DNA from: a virus
Taxonomy: Duplodnaviria; Heunggongvirae; Uroviricota; Caudoviricetes
DNA length: 64,000 nucleotides
Direction: 5' to 3' (one strand)
Virus record (IMG/VR): IMGVR_UViG_3300021400_000025
Location: 86,479 to 150,478 of that record
A program made the translations under genes and the position numbers. Numbering within the stretch: the first letter of the stretch is position 1; each line of letters begins with the position of its first letter. The notes beneath the pieces were generated by a model, which saw only the letters and a program-made list of their open reading frames with translations, ran no database searches and had not been told where the DNA came from. Positions 1 through 63,814 of the stretch are shown here, piece by piece.

Positions 1-1742
1 TTCTCCAGATGTCCAGGACAAGTCAAGACGCCCTTCAATGGGGAAATGTGGCTCCATTTGGTGTCGCCACCAATTGATGCAAGCGTCATCATCGTCAATG
101 GGACGAATGGGTGTTGGTGGTTGTGGATTGTGTTCACTGGGTGGGTCTGGGTCTTTTCGTGGTTGGATGAGTGGTGATCCACTGAAATGTTCCACAATCT
201 TGTGATGAATTCCCTTTCCCAGCAGTCGAACACTTCGCTCCACGCATCCATCAACGCCCGCTCGAATCCATCTATGCTCTCTATTGCCTGTTGACACCAA
301 CTGGGGAGTTCAACTATGGGCCCCTTTTCCGAGTATTCCCACACTTGGTTGAACATGGAGTCCAATATGTCCTTTCCCTTCACTGGAAGGAGTGCTTGGT
401 TGGTCATGACATCTATGACGCCCTGTTGTATGATGCATTTGAACGATGTTATCCTTTTCTTCAGCTCAGATGGACACAATTTCGCATGTGTGACGTTGCA
501 ATGCTTTCCAGGAGTTTCAAAGTCGTTGTACTTGTCCTCAATCAATTCGTTCATGATGTCCAAGTCTCTGTACAATGGCGTTGCGAGGACATCTATGTTG
601 CCCCAGATATCAGGATAGGGGCCTGGTCCGGAGGATGTGGTGCATCTTGAGGCTTCCAATGTGTCCAGAGCCTGATCCCTCATCTGCCTGAACAGTTTCT
701 TCACGCAACTGATTTTGTTCACCAAAACCACGTTTTCGACGTCATCTTCCTTTGGCGCGATGTGTGTTGTGCCCTCAATCTTCTGGTTCTCGACTCCGGT
801 GTCGGTCACCCCCAGTTTCTTCCCCATCTGGGAGTCTATCACCTTGGACGTGAAAACCTTGTCCTTCTTCTGGTCGGCCTTCTTCTCCAATTTCTCCTTC
901 AATCCCACAAAACTGGAGATGACTTTGCCCACAGTGCTCTTCGACACCAGTCTGTCTATCACCGACTCCAACAAGTCCAATTTTCTAATCATCCGCTCGT
1001 TGGCGATTGGCTTCATGTTGAACTCGCAATATGAACCCATCTTCATCCATTGAATCATCATTCCTGTGATGCCTGGAGTCCAGAAGTCCTTGTCCTCCAA
1101 TGGGGTGCATGACCATTGGTTGCGCTTGATGAACCAGTTGTTGCCCCAATCCTTCAACGCCCTTGCAGTCCACCACACATTTGTCTGGAAACTGGATTTG
1201 CAGTCTTGGTTGGGTATGGAAATCAGCTTGTCGCAAGAGTTGTTGTCCACCAGATTGTAGAGATGTTCCATCCGAATGATGTTCGCTCTGTACTGGTCAA
1301 GGGCGGCAAGAACCACATTCTTGTCCTTCTCGTAGTGTTGAACCCAGTCCTCTGACGCGAAGAACCTTGGGTTGGTGGATTCTGGGTCGTAGATTTTCCC
1401 CTCCAGCTTCAAGAAGTCCCTTACCGTCTTCTCCATCGTGATGAGGTCGTCCTGTGGGGTGAATTGGTCCGCCACATTGTCTCGCTTTGCAGTTGGACAT
1501 GACGAATCCTTGGGTATGGCTCGATATACAGTGTATACCTTCTTGCACATCTGGTTCACAGAATCGTCCACAGAATCCATGCCTATGTCGCCCAGTTCTT
1601 GTGGGGATGTGCCATCGCTTTGTCCTGGTGAATCGCTGCTGGACTGACCAGAATTGGAGCCACCTCCACATGATCCACCTTTCTTCTTGGGCTTCTCCTC
1701 TTTCTTGTCGTCTTCCTCTTCTTTTCCATCATCACCCGACAT
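1..1742 (-). CDS. hypothetical large protein (>=580 aa in window). The start codon is at 1742 and the C-terminus lies beyond the window start. The N-terminus is Lys/Glu-rich (MSGDDGKEEEDDKKEEKPKKKGG...)
   Basis: Manual minus-strand translation from the ATG (revcomp of 1740-1742) down to position 1 finds no stop codon. The ORF track omits it because no stop lies inside the window. The ATG directly follows the in-frame TAG of ORF 1743..1952. Confidence 0.6.
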   Translation of the reverse strand, partial: MSGDDGKEEEDDKKEEKPKKKGGSCGGGSNSGQSSSDSPGQSDGTSPQELGDIGMDSVDDSVNQMCKKVYTVYRAIPKDSSCPTAKRDNVADQFTPQDDLITMEKTVRDFLKLEGKIYDPESTNPRFFASEDWVQHYEKDKNVVLAALDQYRANIIRMEHLYNLVDNNSCDKLISIPNQDCKSSFQTNVWWTARALKDWGNNWFIKRNQWSCTPLEDKDFWTPGITGMMIQWMKMGSYCEFNMKPIANERMIRKLDLLESVIDRLVSKSTVGKVISSFVGLKEKLEKKADQKKDKVFTSKVIDSQMGKKLGVTDTGVENQKIEGTTHIAPKEDDVENVVLVNKISCVKKLFRQMRDQALDTLEASRCTTSSGPGPYPDIWGNIDVLATPLYRDLDIMNELIEDKYNDFETPGKHCNVTHAKLCPSELKKRITSFKCIIQQGVIDVMTNQALLPVKGKDILDSMFNQVWEYSEKGPIVELPSWCQQAIESIDGFERALMDAWSEVFDCWEREFITRLWNISVDHHSSNHEKTQTHPVNTIHNHQHPFVPLTMMTLASIGGDTKWSHISPLKGVLTCPGHLE

Positions 1743-1952
1743 CTACTCCTTGACTTCCTCCTTTACCTTCTCCTCTGCCTTGTCGCCAAGTTTTTCCCCG
1801 ATGTATTTTCCAACCATGGTGCCTATGGGGCCCCCGAAGTAAGCCCCGAGAGCGGCAGCAGCCATGCCACCCACCTTCTTCCCCAATTCACCTCGGCTTG
1901 TCATCTCGTTGGTGGAGGCCACATCATCTATATTGTCTTTCTTCTCTTCCAT
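1743..1952 (-). CDS. small glycine-zipper membrane protein (69 aa). Possibly the N-terminal membrane anchor of one TAG-readthrough ORF together with 1..1742
   Basis: ORF track. The motif GGMAAAALGAYFGGPIGTMVG is a GxxxG glycine zipper. The TAG stop is followed immediately, in the same frame, by the ATG of the next ORF. Confidence 0.5.
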   Translation of the reverse strand: MEEKKDNIDDVASTNEMTSRGELGKKVGGMAAAALGAYFGGPIGTMVGKYIGEKLGDKAEEKVKEEVKE

Positions 1953-1958
1953 CTTGTC

Positions 1959-1990
1959 TATTTACCATTGTGCGTGGGAAATGGTAAATA
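1959..1990. promoter_or_regulatory. divergent pair of late-promoter-like motifs (AATGGTAAATA on each strand), together forming a 10-bp inverted repeat
   Basis: tatttaccattg at 1959-1970 is the reverse complement of aatggtaaata at 1980-1990. The pair lies between the divergent genes starting at 1952(-) and 2024(+). The same motif recurs at 13887, 60071, 61111(-) and 61917. Confidence 0.45.
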
Positions 1991-2023
1991 CCATCCATAG
2001 AGAGATACATAGGAAAATCGACA

Positions 2024-2935
2024 ATGGTTAGCATCAACAACATAGCGGATCTCAAGAACAGAACATTGATGGAAAGCAACACGTTCAAATCGTTTGTGTT
2101 GTCTTCACAGTCCAACGACTTCACAAATCCTCCATCATTGAACGACATTCTGATACATGAATTCCAGACGGCGAACTCCATCACCTTGAATTCCATCTTG
2201 TCGAACTTCATAGTGAATCTGAAATATGCGTGGACAAAGTGGCTTGATCCACAGTCCATGCAGCATACATCGTATTTTCAAGTTCGGAGGGAGGGCGAAT
2301 CCTACTCCAAGCTGGACGACGAGGTTCGGCTTCTTCTGGACATCATGGACGATGGGACAGGGACGTTCAAGTCCAGATATCTGGAGATGGATGCAGTGAC
2401 CATGACCCCCTCGGAGGGGATTTCCAGATACATCTCCCTTGGTGGATTGTGGTATGGTGTGCAGAAGGTTGCGTTGAGGGACAATGAGGATGACGACAAG
2501 TTGGTTCTGGATTCAGAAAACAACTATATCAGCACAGAGAACCTTGTGCTTGCTCCTGAGCCGTTGAACGACTTCACGATGCACGCCAATCCTTATGGTA
2601 CGAATCCATTTGATGCGCCTGGTTGGGCATGGGACGATGAAGGGAATGCTCCAGATGAACCCAATCGGGGTTCGTTCAACGAGTTCATGAAGGTGCGTGC
2701 TGGAAGCGTCTTGAAAACATCCATCCAGATAGACTGCATTGTTGAAAACCTCTTCAAGGGCAACCAGTTCGACTGCGCGAAGGACGATCTTCTCGCCAAG
2801 TGGATATTTCCCGAATCAGAGTTCATCGTGTGCGCGGGTCATGGGATTTACGCCTTGGAGATGCAATATGACAATGGCAAGTTCGTGGGGATGATGATGT
2901 GGGACATAGGCAAGTTGATTCCCAATCTTGATTAG
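2024..2935 (+). CDS. standard-code segment 1 (303 aa) of the recoded ORF 2024..11590
   Basis: ORF track. It ends at TAG, and the frame stays open into 2987. Confidence 0.4.
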   Translation: MVSINNIADLKNRTLMESNTFKSFVLSSQSNDFTNPPSLNDILIHEFQTANSITLNSILSNFIVNLKYAWTKWLDPQSMQHTSYFQVRREGESYSKLDDEVRLLLDIMDDGTGTFKSRYLEMDAVTMTPSEGISRYISLGGLWYGVQKVALRDNEDDDKLVLDSENNYISTENLVLAPEPLNDFTMHANPYGTNPFDAPGWAWDDEGNAPDEPNRGSFNEFMKVRAGSVLKTSIQIDCIVENLFKGNQFDCAKDDLLAKWIFPESEFIVCAGHGIYALEMQYDNGKFVGMMMWDIGKLIPNLD

Positions 2936-5900
2936 AGCAAATACGAGAATTTTGAGTACGACTTCAAGTGGTGTGGGTTCATCTCCATGGACGAAATAAG
3001 CACATTGGTGGTGATGTTCAGTGACAAGAATGGCAAGTATCACTACGCATATGTCAATGAGAAGTCCTATGACGCGGCATATGGATTCACCCCCATACGC
3101 GATTTGGTGGACAACACATTGACGACCAATCCCCAGTTGGTGTTCAACAGAGTTGATTCAATCAAGCAGCTTGGCGATGTCAACATTGCGATGACCGACT
3201 ATGGCTTCTGGGACTTGGAGTTGAACCAGACGGACAACATCACATATTCATTCAGACACACGGGCAAGTCATACAAAGCATGCACATGGAATGGACATCT
3301 CATGACCAATACCAAGATAATACTTCCTGACAATCACCAGATGATGCCTGGGTCAAAGATATGCGAGTACGACAAGCAGTGGACATTGGATGATTCAACG
3401 AACACCCATTGGGTCATGGATGATTCCACAAAAAGCCAATTCGTTGATGTTGTGAGGGTTGATGGCGAGAAGCATAAGTTCGTGGGTGGACTTCCTGGAA
3501 ACTTCGCATTGTATGATGTCAGCGAAAGCAGTCCGGCGCAGTTGCTTGTTGACATGGATGAAAACGAGTTCAAAAGAGCCATCTTCGCGGATTCGGAGTT
3601 GGCATATAGGTTCACTGAATGGCTGTATGGTCAAGTGGTCTATCCAAACAAGGGGCAGAAGTACATAGACGACATAAAAACAGATGCATGGTGGACTGGA
3701 GATTTCCAGACAAAAGCAGAAACCAAGTCCATATCTGATGTGATATACCCACTTTCTTCCAGTTCGTTCTTGGTTGGCAAGTTCGAGGACATACGACATA
3801 TGATTGGCGATGAAGCCACCTCCCTTCAAGATTACTGCAAAGCATTGGCAGACATCAATGCCACGCCACCATCTTCTGATTTGAATTGGCTTGTCTCTGA
3901 TCAATCATCCTTGGAAGAAGCAATCAAGACTTGGTTCCGCGACACTGACAATGAAAATGGATTCAGTCAAAGGCACAAAGATGGTTTCGTTTAGGAGTTG
4001 ATGCCTCTCATTCAGGGGGAATATCCTCTTCTCTTCACGCACTTCAAGCAGTATTTGAACGATTGGTTGAACGAGACCATTGAGATTCAGGAAGGAGATT
4101 CGCAGACACTGACTTTCACCAATGTGGAGGAGATTTCCAGGAAGGTGAAGGACTACATCATGAGTCTGGTTCCAGTATGTCTGGAGATGGTTGGTTCCGA
4201 TCAATCTGATCTTTTGAGGAAGAACCGTCTTCATCAGAACCAGTTCATGCTTGGGAAGTCCCAGGCATTGGACATATACTCTCCCATGAACGCCAGCAAC
4301 GAGATGCTGAAGGCAGTGAAATCTACACCATTCTTCATGAACGCCAATTCCTATAGTGGAATCATCCAGACCAATGGTTCGCCGTTCAAGATTGAATAGA
4401 ATGTGGAATACGCCAAAAAGTCTGGAATGGTGGATGGCGATGGGAATATACAGTTGAATTGGAATGGCATCAAAGAATGGTTGCTTGGTGATGAAGTCAA
4501 GCAGGATGTGAACGTCCTTAAGGCTTTGGTCAAGACCCAGCTATATCGTCCATTGTTCTTCAAGCATGATGACTACGAGCATTTCACTTCTGATGCAAGC
4601 AAGTATTGGTGCGAGACGCAAAAGTCCTTCAACGACCATAATGGGGTTCTTCATCTTGTCAAATGGGAAAAAGATGGTGACGATGGGGAGAAGTGGGGGG
4701 ATTTGGATCCATCTGGATCAGGATTGACGAGTGATGCTTCAAACATGGAATATACTGAGCAGAAATACAACAAAATCTCCAATGTGATATCATACAATGT
4801 TGTTGTCAAGGACGTGCCCATTGTTGATGGCAAGTTCGTCTACAACGATGTTGAGTTCTATGTCGTCAAGGATAAGGACAACAACCCCACATCTGTGTAT
4901 TTCAACGAGTTCCAGAAGGAAATGGAGCAGTACACCCAGAAGATTGAGATTGAGGACAATAAGTTCAAAATCCAGATCAAATTCATTGACCCACGTGGAC
5001 AATTGGCCGTCAAGGATGTTGAATGCGAATTGATTGATGGTGGCACGAAGGTCAAATTGAATGGGCATGAACAGGAAGTCCATGATGGCATGTTCAATGT
5101 TGATGGCGTGTGGTATGTACTCAACAATGAAGAAAACATTGTGAAGTTCTTCAAGGTGGATGACAGTCTTTTGAGGAAATTGGTGGTTTCCCAGGATGGG
5201 CATGTCATGTTCGATAGGTGGAGTCTTGACATGGAGTTTGGTGGCAATGGTGGAAGTAGCGCAACAGTTGACATCACGCGCCACTATGACATGCCTGTTG
5301 TGGATGTCCTGGTCAAGGAATGGTGTGAATATGACAATTAGCCCATAGTCATTGATGAATTGCGCACATTTGAATGGTGGCTGGCGACCAAAATCAACGA
5401 CATGCGCATAATGCCACAATATCAATCCAGTGTGGATGCTCTGGGGAATGGAAATCTATATGATGGTGGGTTGATGGGTTCCCACTGCGTGTTCTCAGTG
5501 GAGAATGTGGTGGTGGATGGATATGTCCAGAGCCGAGGGGTGTTGACGAAGGGCGAGGGCGATTCCGCAGTGCGCATTGATTTGGGCGTTCTCTACAACG
5601 ACCAGATGGAATTGATTTCCACTAGAACGTTCAGGGGGACTGTCAATGATGCTGGCGAGATAGAAGAAGACCCAACTGGTGGATTCAGGTTCATATTGGA
5701 TTCTGAGGATTCCCCACGCAACATCTGCCATTGCTTCTGGTTGGAGGAGTCCAGGTACAAAAGCACACATTCCCACCAGGATGCTGTCGCGGATGTTGAA
5801 TTCATCTTGGACTACGACCAAGACGACAATGGGACGCCAATGGAGCCAGACCTGTCATAGACTGATTGGCAGATTGCTGTTGATTTTGGTGGACGTCCAG

Positions 5901-8900
5901 GCTTCCCCGAGTATCTGCATCTCACCCCAATCGAGGTGGTGACGCTCTCTGCAAACAAGCGCACGATACGGTTCAATGTGGATGTCAATGAGAATCGGGT
6001 GGGGAGCTACATTGTGAATTCCAGGGACGATAAGGTGGATGTTGTTGTGGATGGAAGGAGATATCGTCTGGATTTGAATGCGAGGACAGTGGAATCGTGG
6101 ACTCTCCAGAATGTTGAGGTTAGCACGATGGACTTCTCCACCCAATACACCCCCCAGACCCTTCGCGATGCGATGGTCAAGAACATTCAGCAGTGGATGC
6201 TGGGCGAGATTGTCCATGCCATGTCCCACAACAACGATGAAAATCCAACCATCATGAAACTGGAGTTGACGGACAAGATGAAGTTGTGGCTGGACATGTT
6301 CGCGGACGACGAGAGTGTTCAGATGCACCTTTTGGCTCAACCCAATGCTGACACCCAGTCCGAGGTGAAGTTCAGAGAGATCTTCAAGAACGATTGGGTG
6401 GAGGAGCGCAACGATTCTGGTCAAGGTCTGGCGTGGAAACATCTAAAGGAAACGATAGATGGGGTGTATGGCGATCAGGTGTCCTTGTCGTTGAACACCG
6501 AACCTGCAATGGAGGTTGGATACGACGAGAATGGCGTGGCAAAGACATTCACCCTCAAGGTGCATGTTGATGTCCATGTCATGCAGAACAGAGACTTGGT
6601 GAAAAACACACCAAATTTCAACGACAAATGGATGGCTTCTTCCGCGACCCTGCACGATGTTGTGTTCTATGTGGAATTCACGCCCAAGTTCTCGTATCAG
6701 TCCAACCCCCTTTCATATGATGTGGAATATGGGATTGAATCTTCAGACAGCATTCTCGCCACCATTGATGGCATCATATTCAACAGTCTTGGAAAGACCA
6801 GAACAAAGACATTGGAAGTTCCAATTAGGATAGAGAGATTCAGTTTAGATGGGATGGAATCTGGACAATCTTCGATGTCCGATCTCAATGGTTTGCTGCC
6901 TGACCAGTTGCTTCCGAAATTTCTGGATTCAACAAAGAGCAGAGCTTTGCTTGAATCTGTCAACGAAAAGATTGATTCGTCGGCATCCTCCTTGGTTGTT
7001 GGAAGTCAAGTCGTCGTCAATGCCCAGATGAAGGATGATGGCGATATCCAGACTGGACATGCGTGGGAGATTGGCTCGCCCATACCATCTGAATCATCTC
7101 TGGGTGGTCTTCAATTCATGGAGGAGAGCCGAGGAAGAACCCAGATATCGGGCGAGGAGTATCAATTGGTTTCATCTGACTCGCGGTTGGTTTCTTTGGA
7201 CGACAACAAAGTCTACTTTGATGTGGAGGAGATAGACCGTGGAATCATTGGCGAACAAGGGAAAGTCCATGTCGCATTGACTGATGAGGAAGTCCCCGAC
7301 TCAACCTATTTGAATGGTTGGTTTTCGCTGGAGAACATCAACGACACAATGTATCTCAAAATCAATGCCAAGAATGGTGGTGATTCCATCTCCTTGCCAG
7401 AGAACAAGGGGGAACTGGTTCTTCATGCCAGTGATTTCCCTGAATTCAAGCAAGAGTACAAGTGGACGATGGGGGATTCCACCACTAGTTCCTTGTGGCA
7501 ATACACATCTGAATTGACTGTCCAAGATGAAAACTGGAACTTCAAGGTGGAGAAGATGCGGTTGGAGAATGATGGAACGGGGTCCGAAACATCCTCAACA
7601 GAATCTGAATTGGTTGGTTCAGCCACGAGAAGCAGTTTAAGTTTCTTGCTGCTGGAGGATGACCAACCAAAGCTGGACGAGCAAGACGACAAATGGGTTG
7701 GTTTTCTGTCTGAAGACGAAGCAGATTCCTCCCAGTCTGGTGTTTTCATGGGACCGAGCCTTACAAACCAAGACGATTTCCATGTCAAGTTGATGTGGGA
7801 AGTTGGTGAAAATGTCGAACCAAAATACTATTTGGTGAACGACAATGCACCAGAAGTCTGTGATGTTTCATCAGAGGATGGCGCATTGTTGTTTGATTAT
7901 GAGTTGCCAATCCAAGTTTCCCCATCAAGTGATGAACCATCATCAAGTGATGAACCATCATCAAGTGATGAACCATCATCAAGTGATGAACCCAAGAAGT
8001 ATGGAGTGGATGGCAAATAGAAGATCAGATTCAAGTTCAACATTGATTCCGACACGAATGAAATAACCTTGTCATAGGCGCAATTGGTGAGCGACACCAA
8101 CAACCGCGATGTGCGTGTTCTTCTTGGTGGCATTCCTGACGCGAAGTTGTGGGATGATGCATTGAATTAGAATGAGAATGAGGATGCTTTGGTGGCGAAG
8201 AACAGCATGAAATCCACTGTGGACAGATGCATGATATACCATACTGTGGGCTTGTTGGGAACCAATGCCGAGTATATTCCAACAGACACTTTCACTGTTG
8301 AGTCATAGGAGACCGTGATGGATGGTGGAATTGAGTTTTCGTTCAAGTTGAAAGTCCAGACCATCGTACAGATGCTCTATGTTGATTAGACCACGGACCA
8401 GAATCCACAATAGGTCATATTTGATCAATATCTGCTGGCAAAGACCTCATCAACAGATATCCCATCGGTGGACAGATTGTTCGCGCTCAAGACATTCTCC
8501 GGCGACAACATCATCATCATAGACTCGACATCTTCATCAATAGACAAAATAGACAATGCGTTTGCGTGGATTCCCACGAACCTGAAAAACGGCATCAAGC
8601 GGGATGAGTATGACTTGAAGATGTTCTATTTGAATGATTTCGTGCCGTCAAATTCATCGTTGCCCAGCTTGAGATATTGTCCGTGCGATATTGTCTCACT
8701 GCCCCCAGACCAGGCTCCATCGCGCGATGGCGAAGTATATGGCAGACAATACACTCACAAGAAGGACATTGTGGTTGAACACACAGACATTGATCAGAAT
8801 GACGCAAATGGGAAGTTCTGGTTGAATCTTGCAGATACCCTCAAGTCAATCACAATCATCCCATCCAATGACCAGTATCCTGATTTGATGCCTGAAAGTG

Positions 8901-11590
8901 ACATCAGCATTCCTGATGCGCTGCGCCAGAAGATGATGGAGCTTGTGGACAACATCATGAAGTTGGACAATGGCTACTTCAGCATGGTGTATCAACAGTT
9001 CAAGCAATTCATGGATGTCCTTGTGGGTGAGTTGTCCAGGAGCATTGACATGGAACACATCAAGGATTTGTGTCGATTCAAGTTCAACAACACAGTGACT
9101 TTCAATGGAAGGACATGGAAAATGTTGAATCCCATCCCACCACCATTGAACAGTACATACAAATCCTGCTTGGACGCATTCGATCTCCATCTATGGAAGC
9201 AATTTTGCGACGACTTCATGCGGGTTGATGATTTGACAGTATACGATGATCGCGACTACAAGCATATTCTCTTACCTGACTACTATGATCAGTATCAATC
9301 AAAGATATAGGCCATGAAGAATGCCAAACTTGGCGACTTGTTCCAGCAACTGGATGAGATGGATGGCATCTATGATGAAGTGTTTAGGGATCTCGCCGAC
9401 AAGGTCAGGTTCATCAATCTTGTTCCCACCACCATCAAGGGTGGAATCAAGGGCATGTTCAACGCAGATGATCAGTGCAATGTGTTCCATTCGCAGGGAG
9501 AGACCATTGTTTGGCGCAGATTCTTCTCGTCTGAACCACAGATGAAGACCATACTGCACAACAAGATTTCCAATCCTGTGGGGAACCATGTGTTCGACCC
9601 ATAGTTCCAGATATTGGACTTTGGCATTGATGATGATGGTTGGTTGTTCAAGTTCGCCAACAGGGATTTGACGCATGACGACACGATGGCGATATCGGAT
9701 GCGTTCTGCGTCCATTGCGAGGGGGATTTGTGGCATCTGAATGTACTTGACACATATTTCAGATCCCCCACATCATATCGCATCAAGGACATCGCCTATG
9801 AGCAGAACGAAGATTGCATCTATGTTCTGTTCTCCGACGACAACCATCTATACAGGTTCGATCATCCATCCATTGGGCAGGATTCCAGGAAATGCGTTCT
9901 TCTTGTGAAGGAGTCTGCAAGCATGAAGATTGAGACGTTCTCCACTGTCCAATTGCAGGATGGCAGTCCATAGTTGGAATCCGTCTATCTGGACTATGAA
10001 GGGTCGGACAATTGGACGATTAGGTTGTACGCCAACGAGTCTGTGGAGACATGGCCCGGAAGTCCATCGTTCTCCATGTTCCAGACCTACAACAACATTT
10101 TGTTCGGGAACTCCTTGTTCAACTCAGGGCAGATGCAGTTCCACAACATATCGAAGAACAAGTAGATGGTGGACATGTTGGATGTCAATGAGGTGGATGA
10201 CCTCTACTATGGATTGTTCAAGAGCAATGTCAAAGGTGATGATGGTGGGTACACGGTGTTCAAGTCATCTGGAGATGGGCAGGGGGTCGTGAAGCGTCTT
10301 CCTTGGAAGGTCGTTGTCCCCAGCATGTTCAGGACTTGCGATCCCTTGTATTCGCTCTATGTCGTGGTCAAGGGGGATGATGGCAAGGTTCAACTGCGCG
10401 AGATTTCATGTCCTGACCAAGACATCTACGCCGACAGAGTGATTGAGGTGCAGCGGATTCTGGAGGAGAAGGATGGCGAGGAGGTGGGCGACTTGAACAT
10501 CAGCTGGCTGATGATGGACGATTTCATCTTGCGCTCTCCCCAATCTTCGTTCTTGATGCTCTCCAACAAGGGGTTGTCCAGAATCCACTATGTCTCCCGC
10601 ATGAAGCAGTTGTCCATAGATGGGCTTCCTGAGTTCAAGGATCTTCTGGCGAAGACATTGAAGGATGGCATTCTCCATAGGCACATGGAGGAGAAGCATG
10701 TCGAGGATTTGTTCAAGCAGATTGAACGCAAGGTCAATCAGCGTGAAACTGGATTCAGCGTGTTCGATTTGCTTCCGACAGAATTCCAACAGACCCAGGA
10801 CATTGGCGTGATTCCAGACTCCAAGATTGACGATGACGACGATTTCACCGATCATAGATCAGACTCCATACAAGTGTCCACCGACTTGACGATGGCAGAT
10901 GGCATGTTCGCGTCAGTCGACACCAATCCTGGGATTGTCTCTGGGGCAGTGGCCAATCCAGCCACAACATATGACAGCGACTATGTGTTCTTGAAGTCCC
11001 AGCGCAACCCCTCCATAGTGGGAACGGAGTTCTATGACTACATCACCGACACTGATGGGAACATCTTGATGGATTTGTATCAGATTCCCTTCATATACCA
11101 GGTCAACACCAACAACACATATGACCTCTACATCAACCTCCCCACAACCAGAACCAAGTATCTGAACAGAATCGCGGGGACTTTGAAGGATGACTTGACA
11201 AGCCAGGTGTTGAAGGATGATGTCCGCGCCAGATTGAACTTCAACAACGAGATGATGCCGAACAACCTTGACGAATCCACAACAAGGTTGAGGGTGTACA
11301 TCGACAGAAAATACATCTCAATAGGCAATGTCGAGTTGGTTGAGATTTCGGGCAACTCAATCCCACTTCAGATATACAGGGACAGTGGCGCGAACAATGA
11401 TCTCTACGATTCAATAGCCCTTGAAAGCAGATGGGATGGAGAGGTTGTTGAAATCAACGAGCCAAGCAAGGACATCAACAAGGTCATGTTGGAGTTCGAG
11501 TGCTATGGAACCGACTCTCAGTCAATCCACATCCAGGGCAAGACCTTGATTAACAGGGCGTTGGACGACAAGAAATACATCTTTGGCTGA
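2024..11590 (+). CDS. composite giant ORF of about 3188 codons, continuous in one frame. It contains 15 in-frame TAG codons and no TGA/TAA, and terminates at TGA 11588-11590. Putative recoded virion megaprotein
   Basis: All eleven standard-code ORFs between 2024 and 11590 share frame 2. Every junction is a TAG followed by open frame, which I verified codon by codon (TAGs at 2933, 3992, 4397, 5339, 5858, 8018, 8075, 8168, 8306, 8387, 8411, 9308, 9602, 9971, 10163). The internal 'starts' have no Shine-Dalgarno sequence. A TAA at 1985-1987 closes the frame upstream. Confidence 0.55.
2987..3994 (+). CDS. standard-code segment 2 (335 aa) of the recoded ORF
   Basis: ORF track. Same frame as segment 1. 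Ends at TAG. Confidence 0.4.
   Translation: MDEISTLVVMFSDKNGKYHYAYVNEKSYDAAYGFTPIRDLVDNTLTTNPQLVFNRVDSIKQLGDVNIAMTDYGFWDLELNQTDNITYSFRHTGKSYKACTWNGHLMTNTKIILPDNHQMMPGSKICEYDKQWTLDDSTNTHWVMDDSTKSQFVDVVRVDGEKHKFVGGLPGNFALYDVSESSPAQLLVDMDENEFKRAIFADSELAYRFTEWLYGQVVYPNKGQKYIDDIKTDAWWTGDFQTKAETKSISDVIYPLSSSSFLVGKFEDIRHMIGDEATSLQDYCKALADINATPPSSDLNWLVSDQSSLEEAIKTWFRDTDNENGFSQRHKDGFV
3998..4399 (+). CDS. standard-code segment 3 (133 aa) of the recoded ORF
   Basis: ORF track (TTG start). Same frame. Ends at TAG. Confidence 0.35.
   Translation: MMPLIQGEYPLLFTHFKQYLNDWLNETIEIQEGDSQTLTFTNVEEISRKVKDYIMSLVPVCLEMVGSDQSDLLRKNRLHQNQFMLGKSQALDIYSPMNASNEMLKAVKSTPFFMNANSYSGIIQTNGSPFKIE
4403..5341 (+). CDS. 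standard-code segment 4 (312 aa) of the recoded ORF
   Basis: ORF track (GTG start). Same frame. Ends at TAG. Confidence 0.4.
   Translation: MEYAKKSGMVDGDGNIQLNWNGIKEWLLGDEVKQDVNVLKALVKTQLYRPLFFKHDDYEHFTSDASKYWCETQKSFNDHNGVLHLVKWEKDGDDGEKWGDLDPSGSGLTSDASNMEYTEQKYNKISNVISYNVVVKDVPIVDGKFVYNDVEFYVVKDKDNNPTSVYFNEFQKEMEQYTQKIEIEDNKFKIQIKFIDPRGQLAVKDVECELIDGGTKVKLNGHEQEVHDGMFNVDGVWYVLNNEENIVKFFKVDDSLLRKLVVSQDGHVMFDRWSLDMEFGGNGGSSATVDITRHYDMPVVDVLVKEWCEYDN
5360..5860 (+). CDS. standard-code segment 5 (166 aa) of the recoded ORF
   Basis: ORF track (TTG start). Same frame. The TAG at 5858 is followed by open frame up to 5936. Confidence 0.35.
   Translation: MRTFEWWLATKINDMRIMPQYQSSVDALGNGNLYDGGLMGSHCVFSVENVVVDGYVQSRGVLTKGEGDSAVRIDLGVLYNDQMELISTRTFRGTVNDAGEIEEDPTGGFRFILDSEDSPRNICHCFWLEESRYKSTHSHQDAVADVEFILDYDQDDNGTPMEPDLS
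5936..8020 (+). CDS. standard-code segment 6 (694 aa) of the recoded ORF. It ends with a PSSSDE tandem repeat
   Basis: ORF track (GTG start). Same frame. Ends at TAG 8018. Confidence 0.4.
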   Translation: MVTLSANKRTIRFNVDVNENRVGSYIVNSRDDKVDVVVDGRRYRLDLNARTVESWTLQNVEVSTMDFSTQYTPQTLRDAMVKNIQQWMLGEIVHAMSHNNDENPTIMKLELTDKMKLWLDMFADDESVQMHLLAQPNADTQSEVKFREIFKNDWVEERNDSGQGLAWKHLKETIDGVYGDQVSLSLNTEPAMEVGYDENGVAKTFTLKVHVDVHVMQNRDLVKNTPNFNDKWMASSATLHDVVFYVEFTPKFSYQSNPLSYDVEYGIESSDSILATIDGIIFNSLGKTRTKTLEVPIRIERFSLDGMESGQSSMSDLNGLLPDQLLPKFLDSTKSRALLESVNEKIDSSASSLVVGSQVVVNAQMKDDGDIQTGHAWEIGSPIPSESSLGGLQFMEESRGRTQISGEEYQLVSSDSRLVSLDDNKVYFDVEEIDRGIIGEQGKVHVALTDEEVPDSTYLNGWFSLENINDTMYLKINAKNGGDSISLPENKGELVLHASDFPEFKQEYKWTMGDSTTSSLWQYTSELTVQDENWNFKVEKMRLENDGTGSETSSTESELVGSATRSSLSFLLLEDDQPKLDEQDDKWVGFLSEDEADSSQSGVFMGPSLTNQDDFHVKLMWEVGENVEPKYYLVNDNAPEVCDVSSEDGALLFDYELPIQVSPSSDEPSSSDEPSSSDEPSSSDEPKKYGVDGK
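7921..7992 (+). repeat. 18-nt tandem repeat ccatcatcaagtgatgaa (about 4 copies) encoding (PSSSDE)n
   Basis: Seen directly in the sequence and in the translated protein. Confidence 0.7.
8468..9310 (+). CDS. standard-code segment (280 aa) of the recoded ORF
   Basis: ORF track (GTG start). Same frame as 5936..8020. Five closely spaced TAGs (8018 to 8413) separate it from the previous segment. Confidence 0.4.
   Translation: MDRLFALKTFSGDNIIIIDSTSSSIDKIDNAFAWIPTNLKNGIKRDEYDLKMFYLNDFVPSNSSLPSLRYCPCDIVSLPPDQAPSRDGEVYGRQYTHKKDIVVEHTDIDQNDANGKFWLNLADTLKSITIIPSNDQYPDLMPESDISIPDALRQKMMELVDNIMKLDNGYFSMVYQQFKQFMDVLVGELSRSIDMEHIKDLCRFKFNNTVTFNGRTWKMLNPIPPPLNSTYKSCLDAFDLHLWKQFCDDFMRVDDLTVYDDRDYKHILLPDYYDQYQSKI
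9314..9604 (+). CDS. standard-code segment (96 aa) of the recoded ORF
   Basis: ORF track. Same frame, TAG-delimited on both sides. Confidence 0.35.
   Translation: MKNAKLGDLFQQLDEMDGIYDEVFRDLADKVRFINLVPTTIKGGIKGMFNADDQCNVFHSQGETIVWRRFFSSEPQMKTILHNKISNPVGNHVFDP
9614..9973 (+). CDS. standard-code segment (119 aa) of the recoded ORF
   Basis: ORF track (TTG start). Same frame, TAG-delimited. Confidence 0.35.
   Translation: MDFGIDDDGWLFKFANRDLTHDDTMAISDAFCVHCEGDLWHLNVLDTYFRSPTSYRIKDIAYEQNEDCIYVLFSDDNHLYRFDHPSIGQDSRKCVLLVKESASMKIETFSTVQLQDGSP
9974..10165 (+). CDS. standard-code segment (63 aa) of the recoded ORF
   Basis: ORF track. It starts on the codon right after TAG 9971 and ends at TAG 10163. 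Confidence 0.35.
   Translation: MESVYLDYEGSDNWTIRLYANESVETWPGSPSFSMFQTYNNILFGNSLFNSGQMQFHNISKNK
10166..11590 (+). CDS. terminal standard-code segment (474 aa) of the recoded ORF. Ends at TGA
   Basis: ORF track. Its ATG directly follows TAG 10163 in frame. Confidence 0.45.
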   Translation: MVDMLDVNEVDDLYYGLFKSNVKGDDGGYTVFKSSGDGQGVVKRLPWKVVVPSMFRTCDPLYSLYVVVKGDDGKVQLREISCPDQDIYADRVIEVQRILEEKDGEEVGDLNISWLMMDDFILRSPQSSFLMLSNKGLSRIHYVSRMKQLSIDGLPEFKDLLAKTLKDGILHRHMEEKHVEDLFKQIERKVNQRETGFSVFDLLPTEFQQTQDIGVIPDSKIDDDDDFTDHRSDSIQVSTDLTMADGMFASVDTNPGIVSGAVANPATTYDSDYVFLKSQRNPSIVGTEFYDYITDTDGNILMDLYQIPFIYQVNTNNTYDLYINLPTTRTKYLNRIAGTLKDDLTSQVLKDDVRARLNFNNEMMPNNLDESTTRLRVYIDRKYISIGNVELVEISGNSIPLQIYRDSGANNDLYDSIALESRWDGEVVEINEPSKDINKVMLEFECYGTDSQSIHIQGKTLINRALDDKKYIFG

Positions 11591-13886: not shown

Positions 13887-13897
13887 AATGGTAAATA
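13887..13897 (+). promoter_or_regulatory. late-promoter-like motif AATGGTAAATA, 28 nt upstream of ATG 13926
   Basis: Same motif as at 1980, 60071 and 61917. Confidence 0.4.
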
Positions 13898-13925: not shown

Positions 13926-15509
13926 ATGAAGAACGAACTTGATTGCATATTGAAGAACGAGATTCTGGAGGGATGCATGGATTCCCTGTTGGAATTCTCC
14001 GAATCTGGCGATGGCTCTGCGGTGAAGGTGTATGGTAAGATTGCGGGATTGCCTTGCATTGGCAGGACATATTTCACCACGCAGAAGGAGTTGGATGTGA
14101 CGAACGAGGATGCCCAGACATAGATGATGCAGAAATATGGGGCGGAGACCTATGGCTCCTCTGCGCAATTGAGGCAATAGAGCGCAGATAGATAGAAGGG
14201 GACAGGAACTGAGACGGGGATTGGGTCTGTCGTGGACAGCAAAGACTCCTTGATAGATTGCTCGTTCAAGCCATTGATGAAGCTTCCTGTGAAGTTCCGC
14301 GAATCCATCTGGGGTGGGAATCCAGGCAAGGATTTTCAGGACAAGTGGCAGAAACTGGTTGAGTTGATACAGGGGAAAAGCAAAGACGAAAACTGGGCGA
14401 AGAGCAACCCCAAGATGAAGGAATTGGTTGGGAAGAGGTTTTCGCCTGGTTCTGGGGTTGATAGTCTGGACAACACCAAGCCGTGGAGCGAAGTGCAGAC
14501 CATATTCAACGACAAGGATGTCCAGGCGATGTTGAATCGGGAAAAAGATTTGAACAAGAAGTGGACTGAAGTCCGCAATGCGTGGAATGAGTGGAGTGAA
14601 TCTTCGGGTGGTGGCTCATCTGGCTCTTCTTCTGGTGGAAAGGGAGGTGGTTCTGATTCATCGAAATCGGGTTCTTCTGAATGGGATCCCAGATAGACAT
14701 ACAGGATAGACATCACCACGAAATTCGACAAGAACTGGTTTCAGCGAAAGTTCAAGAGTGGCATGCTCAACAAGATGATAATGGGTTTGAAGACGATGGC
14801 CATGGCGAATCTGGCAAGCGACAGCAAGAACGATAAGAAGGGTTACAAGTACACCGGAAACGAGATGCTTTCCCAGGACGAGCGGAAATTGGACAAAATC
14901 CAGTGGAATATGACGAACAAGGTGGCGAAGGACTACATCACTTATCTTCTTGGGTGGAGCAGAAAGAAGGAGTATTACATGGACGGTTCCCAGCCCAAGG
15001 CTGCATCCACTGCGGATCTTCGAGTTGATGCTGGCGTGGGGAAGAAGTTCGCAGACAAGGCGTTGAGCAATAGAGGCATATTGGGAAGGTTGAGATAGAA
15101 GCTGTTTTCTGGTGGTCAGTCCAACAATGTGGTTTCTGTGGCGTTTCAGTTGGCTGATTGGCGCGATGGATGGAAACTGGTGGAGGAGGATAAGAAGAAG
15201 GGTGGTGAGGAAGGATCTTCTGGTAGGGAGGATGGCGGAAAAGAGGGAGGTGGCTCTGCTGGCTCCGGTGGAAAAGATGGTGGTTCGTCTGGCTCAGGAT
15301 CAACTGGAGTGGGTGGAGGTGGATCGTCTGGGGCTGCAGGCTTGGGCGAGAAGGACATGGACAGTCTAATGACGCTTCTTCAACGGGTCAGGAATGTGGA
15401 GAAGGAGGTATATGGAAAGCAGATGGATGAATCCACATCCAAGGACAACAATGTGGACGGACTTGTGGATGAAGTTCTAATGGCGTACATAGGAGAGAGC
15501 AATGGCTAA
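13926..15509 (+). CDS. composite recoded ORF of about 527 codons with 5 in-frame TAGs (14121, 14178, 14193, 14694, 15096). Gly/Ser-rich linkers. Ends at TAA
   Basis: Track ORFs 13926..14123, 14232..14696, 14763..15098 and 15129..15509 are all in frame 0. Only TAG codons lie between them (verified). A TGA at 13917 closes the frame upstream. Confidence 0.5.
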
Positions 15510-33819: not shown

Positions 33820-34148
33820 CAAGAAAGGAAACAAAAGAAATGAGACATGTAGTCAGCAAGAACCGCGAAAATGTCCCCTATCAAGGATGCTGGGGATACC
33901 ACAGCTACAACTTCACCTGCCCCACGAAGGACAGAATCTACATCAAGGTTCTGAGGTTCGTTGAATCTCATCCGGGATGCAAGCGTTCTGACATTCAGTT
34001 TGGCGTATGGGGAAACCACAACAAGAGCAATTCCACCCTGTTCGCCCAGATGCTCTACCACGACATCCTTGACTACAACAGGAAGTTCGAGTACAAGGTC
34101 ACTCGCAAGGGAAAGAACCTTCTGCGCAAGGTCGGAAAGATGGGATGA
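33816..34148 (+). CDS. hypothetical protein (110 aa)
   Basis: ORF track. Confidence 0.45.
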   Translation: MTRKETKEMRHVVSKNRENVPYQGCWGYHSYNFTCPTKDRIYIKVLRFVESHPGCKRSDIQFGVWGNHNKSNSTLFAQMLYHDILDYNRKFEYKVTRKGKNLLRKVGKMG

Positions 34149-34190
34149 CCCCCTTGACTTCCGAGAAGCAATGTGATATACTGTAGGGGT
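34147..34190 (+). promoter_or_regulatory. early promoter (ACCCCCTTGACTT-N17-TGTGATATACTGTAGGGG)
   Basis: Member of the conserved promoter family. Confidence 0.5.
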
Positions 34191-34227
34191 TGTTGATTTC
34201 TTAAACCAAAAAAGGAGAAAGGCAGAA

Positions 34228-34992
34228 ATGTCTGAAGACAGATCCTGGGAACTTGCCCCAGTCTTGTGCAAGTTGAAGAGGAGCGAAGTTCCTCTTGTGT
34301 CGAAAGTGCCACTTGACAAGGCAACTGACCTTGTTGACAAGTGCTTTGACTACAAGTTCACCGGCGAGTCCAAGGTATATCCCTATGAGATTCCCGAGAA
34401 GATTCTGAACCTGGATGTGAACATCATCCAGATTGTCGGACCTTCTGGCTCTGGCAAGTCCACATTCCTCAAGGCGTTCAAGAAGGCTGGTTGGAACTAC
34501 CCCACGAAGTCCTACGACAACACGAAGGCTGTGATTTCCAACTTCATTGACGATCCTGATGATGGTCTCTCCGCCCTCCAGTCTGTTGGGTTGAGTTCTA
34601 TGCCTGTCATCTGCCGTCCTCGCAATGTTCTCTCAACCGGCGAGGGCTTCCGAGCAGACATGGCTCTGAACCTGGGCGATAGGGTCATGGTTGACGAGTA
34701 CACAAGCGTGATTGACCGAAACGTGGCCATGGCCGCTTCCAATGGCATTCAGAAGTACATCCGCAGGAAGGGCTTCAAGAACGTCATTCTCTGTGGTTGC
34801 CACTATGATGTCATTCCCTATGTCAAGCCTGACATCCTCATTGACCTCCAGACAGGCGTGGTATATGATTTCAGGGACAAGGACACAAGGGAACGATTGC
34901 TAAAAAAAGCATCGACCTCTCCTTCCGCCAAATCGAAGGAGCCGGGAAGCGAGAGGTCTGGAAAAAGGTATTCGCTCCACATCACTATCTGA
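34228..34992 (+). CDS. ABC-type ATPase (nucleotide-binding domain only, 254 aa)
   Basis: Walker A GPSGSGKST. ABC signature-like LSTGEG. Walker B RVMVDEYT. D-loop SVID. H-loop CGCH. Confidence 0.65.
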   Translation: MSEDRSWELAPVLCKLKRSEVPLVSKVPLDKATDLVDKCFDYKFTGESKVYPYEIPEKILNLDVNIIQIVGPSGSGKSTFLKAFKKAGWNYPTKSYDNTKAVISNFIDDPDDGLSALQSVGLSSMPVICRPRNVLSTGEGFRADMALNLGDRVMVDEYTSVIDRNVAMAASNGIQKYIRRKGFKNVILCGCHYDVIPYVKPDILIDLQTGVVYDFRDKDTRERLLKKASTSPSAKSKEPGSERSGKRYSLHITI

Positions 34993-35672
34993 CTGGCAAG
35001 CTTGCCGACAACGCCGACTGCTGGCTCCTTGAATGGGGCGAAACCCTTGTTGGGTTCTGCGCAGTCATGCCCCAGCCATCTGGGACAATGGGTGGAGGAT
35101 GGCGGGTCACTCGTCTCGTAATCCTCCCAGACTTCCAGGGTCTTGGGGTTGGAAGCAGGTTCCTTGACACGATAGCCGAGATGTATGTCAAGCGTGGTCT
35201 GAAGTTGTACATCCGCACAGCCCACATCAAGCTGGGACACTACCTCTCCAAGAACGCCAAGTGGCGCACAACCGCAAGGAATGGCAAGAAGGGCGCGTTC
35301 TCGAATGGGCGCATCAACTGCGTCAAGACCGAGGAGAGCCGACACTCTGTGAATCGGGATTGCTACTCGTTCGAGTATGTTGGCGAAGAGTTCAGGACGA
35401 AGCCCCACAAGGAGATTGTGGTTGACAGCCTCAAGCGCATTGACATGGACGCGATGAAGCGGTATCTTGCTGGGTTGAAGCAGTTGAACTACCTGACGGT
35501 TGTCCACAATGGCGTGCATTCGGCATCTGCCTTGAACGTCCTCTGTAGGGAAATGGGCATCCGCACAGAACTCCTCTACATCAGGGGAGAGGTGTCCAAG
35601 AAGCACCTTGGGGACATGAAGATTGTCTCGTTCGACAAGAATGGCAAGCCCAGGTTCAGAAAGGTGAGTTGA
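34869..35672 (+). CDS. GNAT-fold acetyltransferase domain encoded in the -1 frame. It has no start codon before ATG 35067, so it is probably fused to the ABC ATPase by a -1 frameshift at A7 (34902-34908)
   Basis: The open frame begins right after TGA 34866. GNAT motif A is QGLGVGSRFL. The N-terminal GNAT strands lie upstream of ATG 35067, where there is no ATG, GTG or TTG and no SD. Confidence 0.45.
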   Translation, partial: FQGQGHKGTIAKKSIDLSFRQIEGAGKREVWKKVFAPHHYLTGKLADNADCWLLEWGETLVGFCAVMPQPSGTMGGGWRVTRLVILPDFQGLGVGSRFLDTIAEMYVKRGLKLYIRTAHIKLGHYLSKNAKWRTTARNGKKGAFSNGRINCVKTEESRHSVNRDCYSFEYVGEEFRTKPHKEIVVDSLKRIDMDAMKRYLAGLKQLNYLTVVHNGVHSASALNVLCREMGIRTELLYIRGEVSKKHLGDMKIVSFDKNGKPRFRKVS

Positions 35673-35673
35673 T

Positions 35674-35946
35674 ATGACAGTCGCTGAAATGAAAAAGGTT
35701 CTTGACGAACTGCCAGATGATTATGAAATCCCCGTGCTCACTTGGCTCTTCAAGGAGAATCACCCCTATCTTGTTTCTGAGGACTTCCACCACTTCATTG
35801 AGAAGATGGATGAGAAGGACTTGGACATCAAGGACATATGCTGGGAATTGTCCCTGCTTGGGGATTCGCAGGAGGATCTTGGCAAGGGTCATCTTGTGAA
35901 CAACATCTGGGAGATTGTGAATTATTTACAGAGGTTCATGAAATGA
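35674..35946 (+). CDS. hypothetical protein (90 aa)
   Basis: ORF track. Confidence 0.45.
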   Translation: MTVAEMKKVLDELPDDYEIPVLTWLFKENHPYLVSEDFHHFIEKMDEKDLDIKDICWELSLLGDSQEDLGKGHLVNNIWEIVNYLQRFMK

Positions 35947-36440
35947 AAGTTCTGTTCCTTGACATTGATGGGGTTCTCAACTGCATGTGTCCAACGCCCA
36001 TGCAGGACAACGATTGGATTGACCTTGACGAGTGGCGTTACGGCTTCAATCCAGACCTTGTTGCGCGCCTTCGCTATGTCATTGGGAACACAGATTGCAA
36101 AATCGTGTTCTCCTCCTCATGGCGGCACCACAAGACATACGCCCCCTACCAACCAGACAGGAACTGGAGGGATGTCCTTGCCGAGAAGTTGAGAAGAGAA
36201 CGGGACGAGTTGTTCGTCGGGGAGACTCCATCCGACCCAAAGGGCATCCGTGGTCTTGAAATCAACCAATGGCTTTCAGAGCATCCGGGGGTTGAATCGT
36301 TCTGCGTTGTTGACGACGAGGTTGTTGACATTTTCCCATACATGGACAATTCAAGGGTTGTCAAGACTGACATGACTGTTGGATTGACCATTGAGAGCGC
36401 AAGGCGTATAATAGACGTATTGAACAAGGAAGGAAGGTAA
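35943..36440 (+). CDS. HAD-superfamily phosphatase (polynucleotide 3'-phosphatase / nucleotidase-like)
   Basis: Track ORF 35838..36440. The ATG at 35943 overlaps the previous stop (ATGA). Motif I FLDIDGVLN, motif II IVFSSSW, motif IV VVDDEVVD. Confidence 0.65.
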   Translation: MKVLFLDIDGVLNCMCPTPMQDNDWIDLDEWRYGFNPDLVARLRYVIGNTDCKIVFSSSWRHHKTYAPYQPDRNWRDVLAEKLRRERDELFVGETPSDPKGIRGLEINQWLSEHPGVESFCVVDDEVVDIFPYMDNSRVVKTDMTVGLTIESARRIIDVLNKEGR

Positions 36441-61110: not shown

Positions 61111-61146
61111 ATATTTACCATTTTCAACAGATTATTGTAAATATAC
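61111..61146. promoter_or_regulatory. divergent pair of late-promoter-like motifs (minus AATGGTAAATAT, plus TTATTGTAAATATAC)
   Basis: Same arrangement as at 1959..1990. Serves the genes at 61080(-) and 61183(+). Confidence 0.45.
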
Positions 61147-63724: not shown

Positions 63725-63814
63725 ATGATGATTGACGCTGGAGCGACAGAAGTAACTACTTGGAACATGCCAAGCTGATTGACTTGTCAAGCAAGCATTA
63801 GATTGGTACATTAA

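Follow-up and report, generated by a model that had tools for sequence, protein, structure and literature searches.

The first 1,952 nucleotides of the window, as we call the whole 64,000-nucleotide stretch of phage DNA analyzed here, very probably represent the 5' three-quarters of one minus-strand gene of 845 codons, carried by a rumen megaphage of about 418 kb in which TAG encodes glutamine (genetic code 15). Our comparisons support the view that the two apparent minus-strand genes of this region would be that single gene. According to this explanation, the phage would read TAG as glutamine in some of its genes. The TAG at 1745..1743 would be a sense codon in a linker that leads from a glycine-zipper module to a large helical domain rich in Cys and His, and the ATG at 1742..1740 would encode an internal methionine. 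The gene may be of the late/structural class and driven by a promoter-like element, ATGGTAAATA, which is common to the neighboring TAG-rich ORFs, while the glycine zipper might conceivably act as a membrane-interacting or oligomerising leader.

Extent of the minus-strand gene and its fused homologs

On the minus strand, ATG 1952..1950 opens an ORF of 69 codons with a GxxxG-rich product (MEEKKDN...GGPIGTMVGKYIGEKLGDKAEEKVKEEVKE). Its stop is the TAG at 1745..1743, directly followed in the same frame by ATG 1742..1740, after which 580 stop-free codons extend down to position 3. If TAG is treated as sense, the entire frame 1961..1 contains this single TAG and neither TGA nor TAA. Re-reading of the sequence thus agreed exactly with the first-pass annotation, which had described the 69-aa ORF, the TAG, the in-frame ATG and an unbroken ORF of at least 580 codons running to the window edge. 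It had also remarked that the long ORF was hidden from the ORF list; indeed, only 1743..1952 (-) appears there, as the list omits any ORF extending past the end of the source.

Region 1..1952 is identical to the public contigs L001 and L002, and public sheep-rumen-type metagenomes have the 69-aa product on record, on contigs measuring 416,990 and 418,130 bp. The junction, GAGTAGATG, is the same in three assemblies (L003 being the third), possibly all from one dataset. L001 and L002 provide the leftward extension that had been proposed at the outset: a TAA ends the frame 586 nt past the left edge of the window (L001), giving 846 codons including the stop and an 845-aa product. Counted from ATG 1952 on L001, this frame holds one TAG, 16 CAG and 17 CAA codons. 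Public gene callers split it into proteins of 69 and 775 aa, or of 69, 49 and 721 aa. The features of the region are collected in Table 1.

Table 1. Features of the minus-strand gene and of the divergent intergenic region (window coordinates)
Feature	Position	Strand	Basis or remark
5' part (first 650 codons) of the probable 845-codon gene	1..1952	-	ATG 1952..1950; TAA 586 nt beyond the edge
In-frame TAG, codon 70; sense, most likely Gln	1743..1745	-	TAGs of relatives versus Gln; Q-M in L005; paralog
Probable internal Met codon (Q-M dipeptide), dispensable as a start	1740..1742	-	Q-M frequency; Shine-Dalgarno spacing
Glycine-zipper segment, residues 24-56, GKKVGGMAAAALGAYFGGPIGTMVGKYIGEKLG	1785..1883	-	Homologous to N-termini of uninterrupted relatives
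Acidic/lysine-rich linker with the TAG, then conserved KKKGGSCGGG and a Ser/Gly-rich low-complexity stretch	1551..1784	-	
Conserved large Cys/His/Trp-rich domain, predicted mostly helical; from the MCKK motif to beyond the window	1..1550	-	
Promoter-like motif ATGGTAAATA, 6 nt upstream of the start codon	1959..1968	-	Kept in every relative examined
Second, back-to-back copy of ATGGTAAATA, toward the divergent giant ORF	1981..1990	+	
Divergent 3,188-codon ORF with 15 in-frame TAGs, no TGA or TAA	2024..11590	+	

A protein search with the 580-aa part returned 49 homologs. In at least five relatives, a glycine-zipper N-terminus is joined to the large protein without a stop; the fused forms are L005/L015, L006, P0004, P0019, P0025 and P0055. 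From Met1 to Glu69, the 69-aa product aligns with such uninterrupted N-termini, with E-values of 1e-16 for L005, 2e-12 for P0019 and 6e-10 for P0004. Because homology to the N-termini of these intact proteins spans its whole length, chance does not account for the two parts sharing a frame. The linker, too, is collinear: between GDKAE and KKKGG, L005 has 26 residues and the window 28. Among the homologs found, none has the glycine zipper and the large part encoded as separate genes in different frames, the arrangement that the first-pass annotation had named as a refutation. Comparison with homologs, as suggested in the first-pass annotation, therefore places the small segment in one protein with the large one in all of the fused relatives listed above, and these together with the 845-codon frame lend support to its proposal that TAG readthrough yields a single product. 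Its label of a 'gene pair', on the other hand, has to be dropped in favor of one gene.

Might the TAG nevertheless end a 69-aa peptide, with the ribosome re-initiating at the adjacent ATG by translational coupling and producing a 775-aa protein? Public gene callers annotate two genes, and relatives L004, L009 and L011 have a short N-terminus without the glycine zipper. The latter resemble the product that would start at ATG 1742, so that a stand-alone 775-aa protein is not an absurd idea. Moreover, Shine-Dalgarno-like tetramers are found at 34 of 58 starts compared with a background of 22%; the phage thus appears to use Shine-Dalgarno sites, and AAGGAG stands directly before the TAG. However, this AAGGAG leaves a spacer of 3 nt to ATG 1742, and a second motif, GGAGGA, is about 14 nt away, whereas spacers are about 8 nt at those gene starts for which the upstream sequence was read. 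The Shine-Dalgarno spacing therefore gives no sign of a dedicated restart at ATG 1742, and both motifs are just the Lys and Glu codons of the linker. In addition, relatives either have the two parts fused or carry TAGs with no start codon after them, the paralog in the same genome (see below) likewise has TAGs that no start codon follows, and Gln is the main residue aligned with TAG in the family as a whole. We consequently rejected a translationally coupled TAGATG pair and regard two separate genes as highly unlikely.

The adjacency of TAG and ATG in itself might be taken as a signal. In ten TAG-bearing ORFs, 6 of 49 TAGs (12.2%) are followed by ATG, an apparent enrichment over the overall ATG frequency of 3.4% (P=0.006). 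The enrichment disappears once ordinary Gln codons serve as the reference, as ATG follows CAG or CAA in 34 of 408 cases (8.3%) in the same ORFs (Fisher P=0.42). TAG-ATG is thus unremarkable, and Q-M dipeptides are simply common in the proteins of the TAG-bearing ORFs. As regards a Met codon coming next, TAG resembles a Gln codon, in line with its reading as Gln.

TAG as a glutamine codon in the gene family and in the genome

The in-frame TAGs of this gene occupy varying positions among relatives and number from one to nine per gene: one in L005 and in L016/L017, two in L012, three in L006 and in L014, six in L010 and nine in L008 and in L020. The TAG of L016/L017 lies in the linker, and the next codon is Thr (ACN) rather than ATG. 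One of the TAGs of L020 falls within the otherwise invariant TPQDD motif (TP#DD, where # denotes TAG here and below). In an alignment of 61 sequences, Gln is the commonest residue in TAG columns by a wide margin (484 of about 1,040), the next being Lys (86). Two of these columns consist entirely of Gln (48/48 and 52/52), and one has it in 43 of 45 sequences. For the TAG at 1745..1743, the automatic alignment puts L, A, Y, F, T and V in the column, the opposing residue being ambiguous because the linker is poorly conserved. When L005 (...LSQMTESSGEDGK) is compared with the window (...VKE#MSGDDGK), Q-M comes to stand opposite #-M only after a shift of one residue. Judging from these alignments, we consider TAG 1745..1743 to be a sense codon, most likely for Gln.

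The recoding pattern that had been noticed on the opposite strand proved real, with all 15 TAGs of the divergent giant ORF falling within its 3,188 codons. On the plus strand, 1988..11590 is one frame if TAG is read as sense, with its ATG at 2024, while the other two frames of the same stretch contain 113 and 178 TGA and TAA codons. Homologs of this giant ORF were not detected in the flanks of the relatives' genes at E<=1e-5. Five TAGs are present in ORF 13926..15509 and two in ORF 15502..18561. The TAG-rich ORFs occupy 2-18.6 kb, adjoin the head-closure gene and for the most part have no annotation, and most ORFs at 20-64 kb are devoid of TAG. Ligase, methyltransferase and QueC-like genes that we tested have either no TAG or only an N-terminal one.

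A search with the 69-aa peptide had a paralog as its sole match. This paralog (L166:6001-6687) belongs to the same genome, lies about 225 kb away and reads MVNT...GGPIGSMVGKYIGEKLGDKAEDKI#EEVKE#MGESSEQSEPPKEEQ#KKKGGSCGG...NWWD#LPDF... Of its four TAGs, one is in the same GAG-TAG-ATG junction, which follows the same N-terminal module, and three are additional. Read with the standard code, the paralog would be left as fragments 73, 5, 15 and 52 codons long that lack usable starts, and the genome must therefore decode TAG. The two copies are 79% identical in DNA; at the junction the DNA, GAGGAAGTCAAGGAGTAGAT, is identical, and EEVKE#M is retained. Altogether, the minus-strand gene is an otherwise intact, conserved ORF with one TAG and a TAA stop, its homologs are collinear across the TAG, TAG aligns mainly with Gln family-wide, and further TAG-dependent genes exist in the genome (the giant ORF, the paralog and ORF 13926..15509), as expected for code 15.

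Both copies of the junction could also be read as a timing switch, in which UAG terminates translation until suppressor tRNA has built up, to give the peptide and perhaps a re-initiated 775-aa protein, and readthrough later produces the fusion. Such dual output is compatible with the single-gene explanation rather than exclusive of it. It would agree with the retention of GAG-TAG-ATG in two paralogous modules of one genome and with published gating of late-gene translation by suppressor tRNAs (PMC10879173). Nonetheless, with copies this similar in DNA, the shared junction may simply be inherited, and TAG-ATG is no commoner than a Gln codon followed by ATG. TAGs of the relatives are at arbitrary positions, fused forms exist without any stop, and in the paralog a ribosome re-initiating at the junction ATG would meet another TAG after 15 codons. 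We therefore think dual output unlikely.

A formerly intact gene might also have been split by a nonsense mutation, giving a pseudogene, or by misassembly; one C-to-T change in CAG would suffice. We give this only the slightest chance. The sequence is identical in the three assemblies, with the proviso about their origin made above, the 775 downstream codons have stayed open and conserved, and long intact frames of the genome contain dozens of TAGs, with the same junction recurring in the paralog.

Suppressor tRNA, promoter-like motif and recoded phages

At a distance of 8.5 kb from the gene, L005 (434 kb) encodes a tRNA of 90 nt whose anticodon is CUA; its variable arm is long and its CCA end is encoded. 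An orthologous tRNA(CUA), in which changes in the acceptor and anticodon stems compensate one another, is encoded by L016/L017 at 7.4 kb from the gene. The long variable arm sets the relatives' tRNA(CUA) apart from a canonical tRNA-Gln. A scan of IMG/VR for the anticodon-arm and T-arm pattern of this tRNA detected it in 40 contigs including that of L005; the scan missed the other two relatives with tRNA(CUA). Within the window, ARAGORN, Rfam, ARAGORN with relaxed settings and BLAST with the relatives' tRNAs detected no tRNA(CUA). ARAGORN runs on L001, L166 and L169 likewise found none in the 8 kb to the left, the 10 kb to the right and the 12 kb around the paralog, bringing the total searched to about 94 kb of the approximately 418-kb genome. 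In a synteny check, the window had no similarity to the genes around the relatives' tRNA(CUA). We infer from the relatives that a phage-encoded suppressor tRNA(CUA) would decode TAG in this genome as well.

The 10-mer ATGGTAAATA occurs 14 times in the window at up to one mismatch, compared with 2.0 expected, a count that 100 shuffles never attained. Next to the gene, two exact copies stand back to back in the divergent intergenic region of 71 bp (Table 1). Further exact copies are present upstream of the TAG-rich ORF at 13926 and, as another divergent pair, at 61112 and 61134. TATACCA or TATACAA usually precedes the motif by 12-13 nt. T4 late promoters have the sequence TATAAATA. Like these, ATGGTAAATA contains TAAATA, sits just upstream of genes of the putatively structural, TAG-bearing block and is paired back to back where genes diverge; a sigma-like gene is found a few genes off. 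It departs from them in not being identical in sequence and in lying only 6 nt from the start codon here. A head-closure connector protein is encoded at 18568..19068 (phrog_218, E=4e-35), and in relatives the divergent block contains calls of a T4 gp13-like neck protein, split in two. From TAG use, the promoter-like motif and the nearby structural genes, it is reasonable to infer a putative late/structural class for the minus-strand gene.

Phage-type proteins of the window include a T4-type RNA ligase, an NAD-dependent DNA ligase, DNA methyltransferases, a QueC-like protein and the head-closure connector. Positions 1..6000 had no nucleotide match among 50,697 phage records. A scan of IMG/VR with a single protein gave no confirmed relative, and alignment-based scans yielded three loci from IMG/VR and nine from metagenome contigs; the contigs of the relatives, from IMG/VR and from metagenomes, measure 201-434 kb.

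Code changes of this kind are familiar from large phages of gut and rumen. Phages with genetic code 15 (TAG to Gln) were reportedly described by Borges et al. in 2022. The window's phage resembles code-15 phages (Lak megaphages, crAss-like phages and recoded jumbo phages of gut and rumen) in that TAGs fragment its genes under code 11 and align with Gln, the genes that contain TAG are grouped in a putatively structural block, DNA-metabolism genes such as ligases and methyltransferases are largely free of TAG, relatives encode tRNA(CUA), the genome exceeds 400 kb and the habitat is of the gut type. It differs in belonging to another lineage, as seen from the lack of a nucleotide match in the 50,697 records and from a protein family of 60 representatives. 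Reading of TAG as Gln in phages has been established by metaproteomics (PMC9523058), code 15 has been reported in jumbo phages of the rumen and other guts (PMC13037316), and suppressor tRNAs have been linked to late-gene translation, their levels gating late genes in the published model (PMC10879173).

The present gene is one more case in which standard-code gene calling breaks recoded megaphage genes. Re-calling with code 15 restores the 845-aa protein, the 228-aa paralog and the 3,188-aa giant protein, in place of which public collections hold the 69-aa and the 721- or 775-aa pieces and many family fragments of 40-140 aa. A lineage of rumen phages of about 415-434 kb would join those with TAG as Gln. 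Knowledge of recoding itself is unchanged, and for a specialist the case is useful for annotation and unsurprising. The case also defines a hitherto uncharacterised family of proteins, restricted to this lineage, whose glycine-zipper leader is modular.

The glycine-zipper leader and the large domain

Searches of the large domain against Pfam, PHROGs, NCBIfam and PDB profiles gave no significant match. An AlphaFold2 model built from a 28-sequence alignment was mostly helical with a mean pLDDT of 50.9, that is, of low confidence, and the best Foldseek hit of this model in PDB had a meaningless E-value of 0.34; for these two reasons we make no claim about the fold. The family comprises 60 representatives among 1.84 billion. 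Many of these are short fragments, which is what gene calls interrupted by in-frame TAGs would give.

Residues 24-56 contain nine overlapping small-xxx-small-xxx-small motifs with the GxxxG pattern. The first-pass annotation had proposed an N-terminal membrane anchor. The N-terminal glycine zipper is indeed there, and an anchor appears possible but weakly supported: the best 19-residue Kyte-Doolittle mean of the segment is 1.18, and its match to Pfam PF13488 (Gly-zipper_Omp; 14.3 bits, E=0.04) is below the gathering threshold of 25 bits. A conserved C-terminal segment outside the window (residues ~683-701) is more hydropathic than the zipper, at 1.77. The zipper also weakly matches Gly-rich hydrophobic segments within phage tape-measure and tail-lysin proteins (PHROGs 167, 1047 and 794). 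With these and other glycine-zipper families (PF13488 and the YiaD type of NCBIfam) it shares repeated GxxxGxxxG and small plus hydrophobic residues. It differs from them in scoring below threshold, in being moderately hydrophobic and in forming an N-terminal module ahead of an acidic linker that is common to two different proteins of one genome. Our best guess, made with low confidence, would be a leader that interacts with membranes or promotes oligomerisation, carried by assembly proteins or by proteins associated with the virion.

In the paralog, the leader is attached to a different domain of 130 aa, which is homologous to a stretch just N-terminal to the large domain in the distant relatives P0052 and P0053 (E=2e-10 and 4e-7), so that the counterparts of the two proteins are parts of a single polypeptide there. 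On sequence grounds, the unit of glycine zipper, acidic linker and KKKGG is a portable module present on at least two different proteins of the phage. One might imagine that this module together with its GAG-TAG-ATG boundary acts as a switch: with rising suppressor tRNA, a free form would give way to one that bears the leader and is targeted to membrane or virion. We consider it quite unlikely, and nothing here favors a link between the leader boundary and the suppressor tRNA level. In P0081, glycine zippers are found after the C-terminus instead, and they match Gly-zipper_Omp with 35.5 bits, above the Pfam cut-off.

A promoter-like motif upstream of the studied gene

The sequence ATGGTAAATA is strongly over-represented in the window, with 14 matches at no more than one mismatch against 2.0 expected. 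Copies precede ORFs, and two back-to-back pairs lie between divergent genes. The motif is kept upstream of the homolog of the studied gene in all relatives, where TATACCA or TATACAA is found 12–13 nt before it. It resembles a phage promoter, possibly a late one, akin to TATAAATA of T4.

In several relatives, the first in-frame ATG is the one within ATGGTAAATA, resulting in gene calls that start with MVNT. At the corresponding place in the window (1960–1968, minus strand) the ATG of the motif is one base out of frame, and there is an in-frame TAA at 1964–1962. If ATGGTAAATA is a promoter element, the MVNT N-termini of the relatives are probably annotation artefacts.

Coordinates of features in the window, in loci of related phages (L005, L016, L017) and in the paralog locus of the same genome (L166)
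Feature	Position	Strand	Remark
ATGGTAAATA	1959-1968	-
ATGGTAAATA	1981-1990	+
ATGGTAAATA	13888-13897	+
ATGGTAAATA	23819-23828	+
ATGGTAAATA	61112-61121	-
ATGGTAAATA	61134-61143	+
ATGGTAAATA			8 further window sites
Giant ORF	2024-11590	+	3,188 codons, 15 in-frame TAGs
TAG-rich ORF	13926-15509	+	5 TAGs
BspA-type LRR protein	62015-63778	+	standard-code ORF ends with TAG, codon 570
Paralog of studied gene	L166:6001-6687		same genome, ~225 kb from window locus
Amber-suppressor tRNA(CUA)	L005:1214-1303	-
Amber-suppressor tRNA(CUA)	L016:2474-2562	-
Amber-suppressor tRNA(CUA)	L017:962-1050	-

The leader and hydrophobic segments in related proteins

The paralog, which has four in-frame TAGs, shares with the studied gene the leader composed of the glycine zipper, linker and KKKGG stretch (79% DNA identity over 233 nt), and the junction GAGTAGATG is identical in the two genes. 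In the paralog this leader is joined to a different domain of ~130 aa. In two distant relatives (P0052 and P0053) the same domain belongs to one polypeptide with the large domain and directly precedes it on the N-terminal side.

Another relative, P0081, is a 226-aa gene call from outside the window. Its N-terminal part corresponds to the 71 C-terminal residues of the large-protein family and is followed by two glycine-zipper domains (PF13488, 35.5 bits, above the cut-off). This domain order means that the zipper can occupy the C-terminal end in some relatives. The hydropathy peak of the studied protein itself (1.77, 19-residue window) is LCQWMVCAIEAIGIRLASISAVM, at residues ~683–701 of the 845 aa in L001, the public contig that extends past the left edge of the window. 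This conserved C-terminal segment, encoded beyond that edge, is a stronger candidate for a transmembrane segment than the zipper at the N-terminus.

Other TAG-containing ORFs and tRNAs

For the giant ORF, the parts tested gave no family match, and no homolog was detectable in the flanks of related phages. The same place in these phages is taken by other TAG-rich ORFs of 1,556–2,152 codons, which suggests a structural gene that is both giant and hypervariable. In the TAG-rich ORF with five TAGs, a KKKGG motif precedes a low-complexity stretch rich in Gly and Ser (~15192), which recalls KKKGGSCGGG in the studied gene. The TAG of the BspA-type ORF, separated from a TGA by 17 more codons, and that at codon 501 of 523 in ORF 19097–20668 could each be either a sense codon or a stop.

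The window has a single confident tRNA, tRNA-Arg(TCT) at 23184–23259 (plus strand). A relaxed ARAGORN search also reported tRNA-Lys(CTT) with a 1,938-nt intron (34059–36082, minus strand), most likely a false positive. The three tRNA(CUA) genes of related phages encode the CCA end and a long variable arm; U1 pairs with A72, and the discriminator base is A. Their best Rfam score is for tRNA-Sec, below threshold. Such features are unusual for a tRNA presumed to insert Gln. Their arm pattern recurs in 40 IMG/VR contigs.
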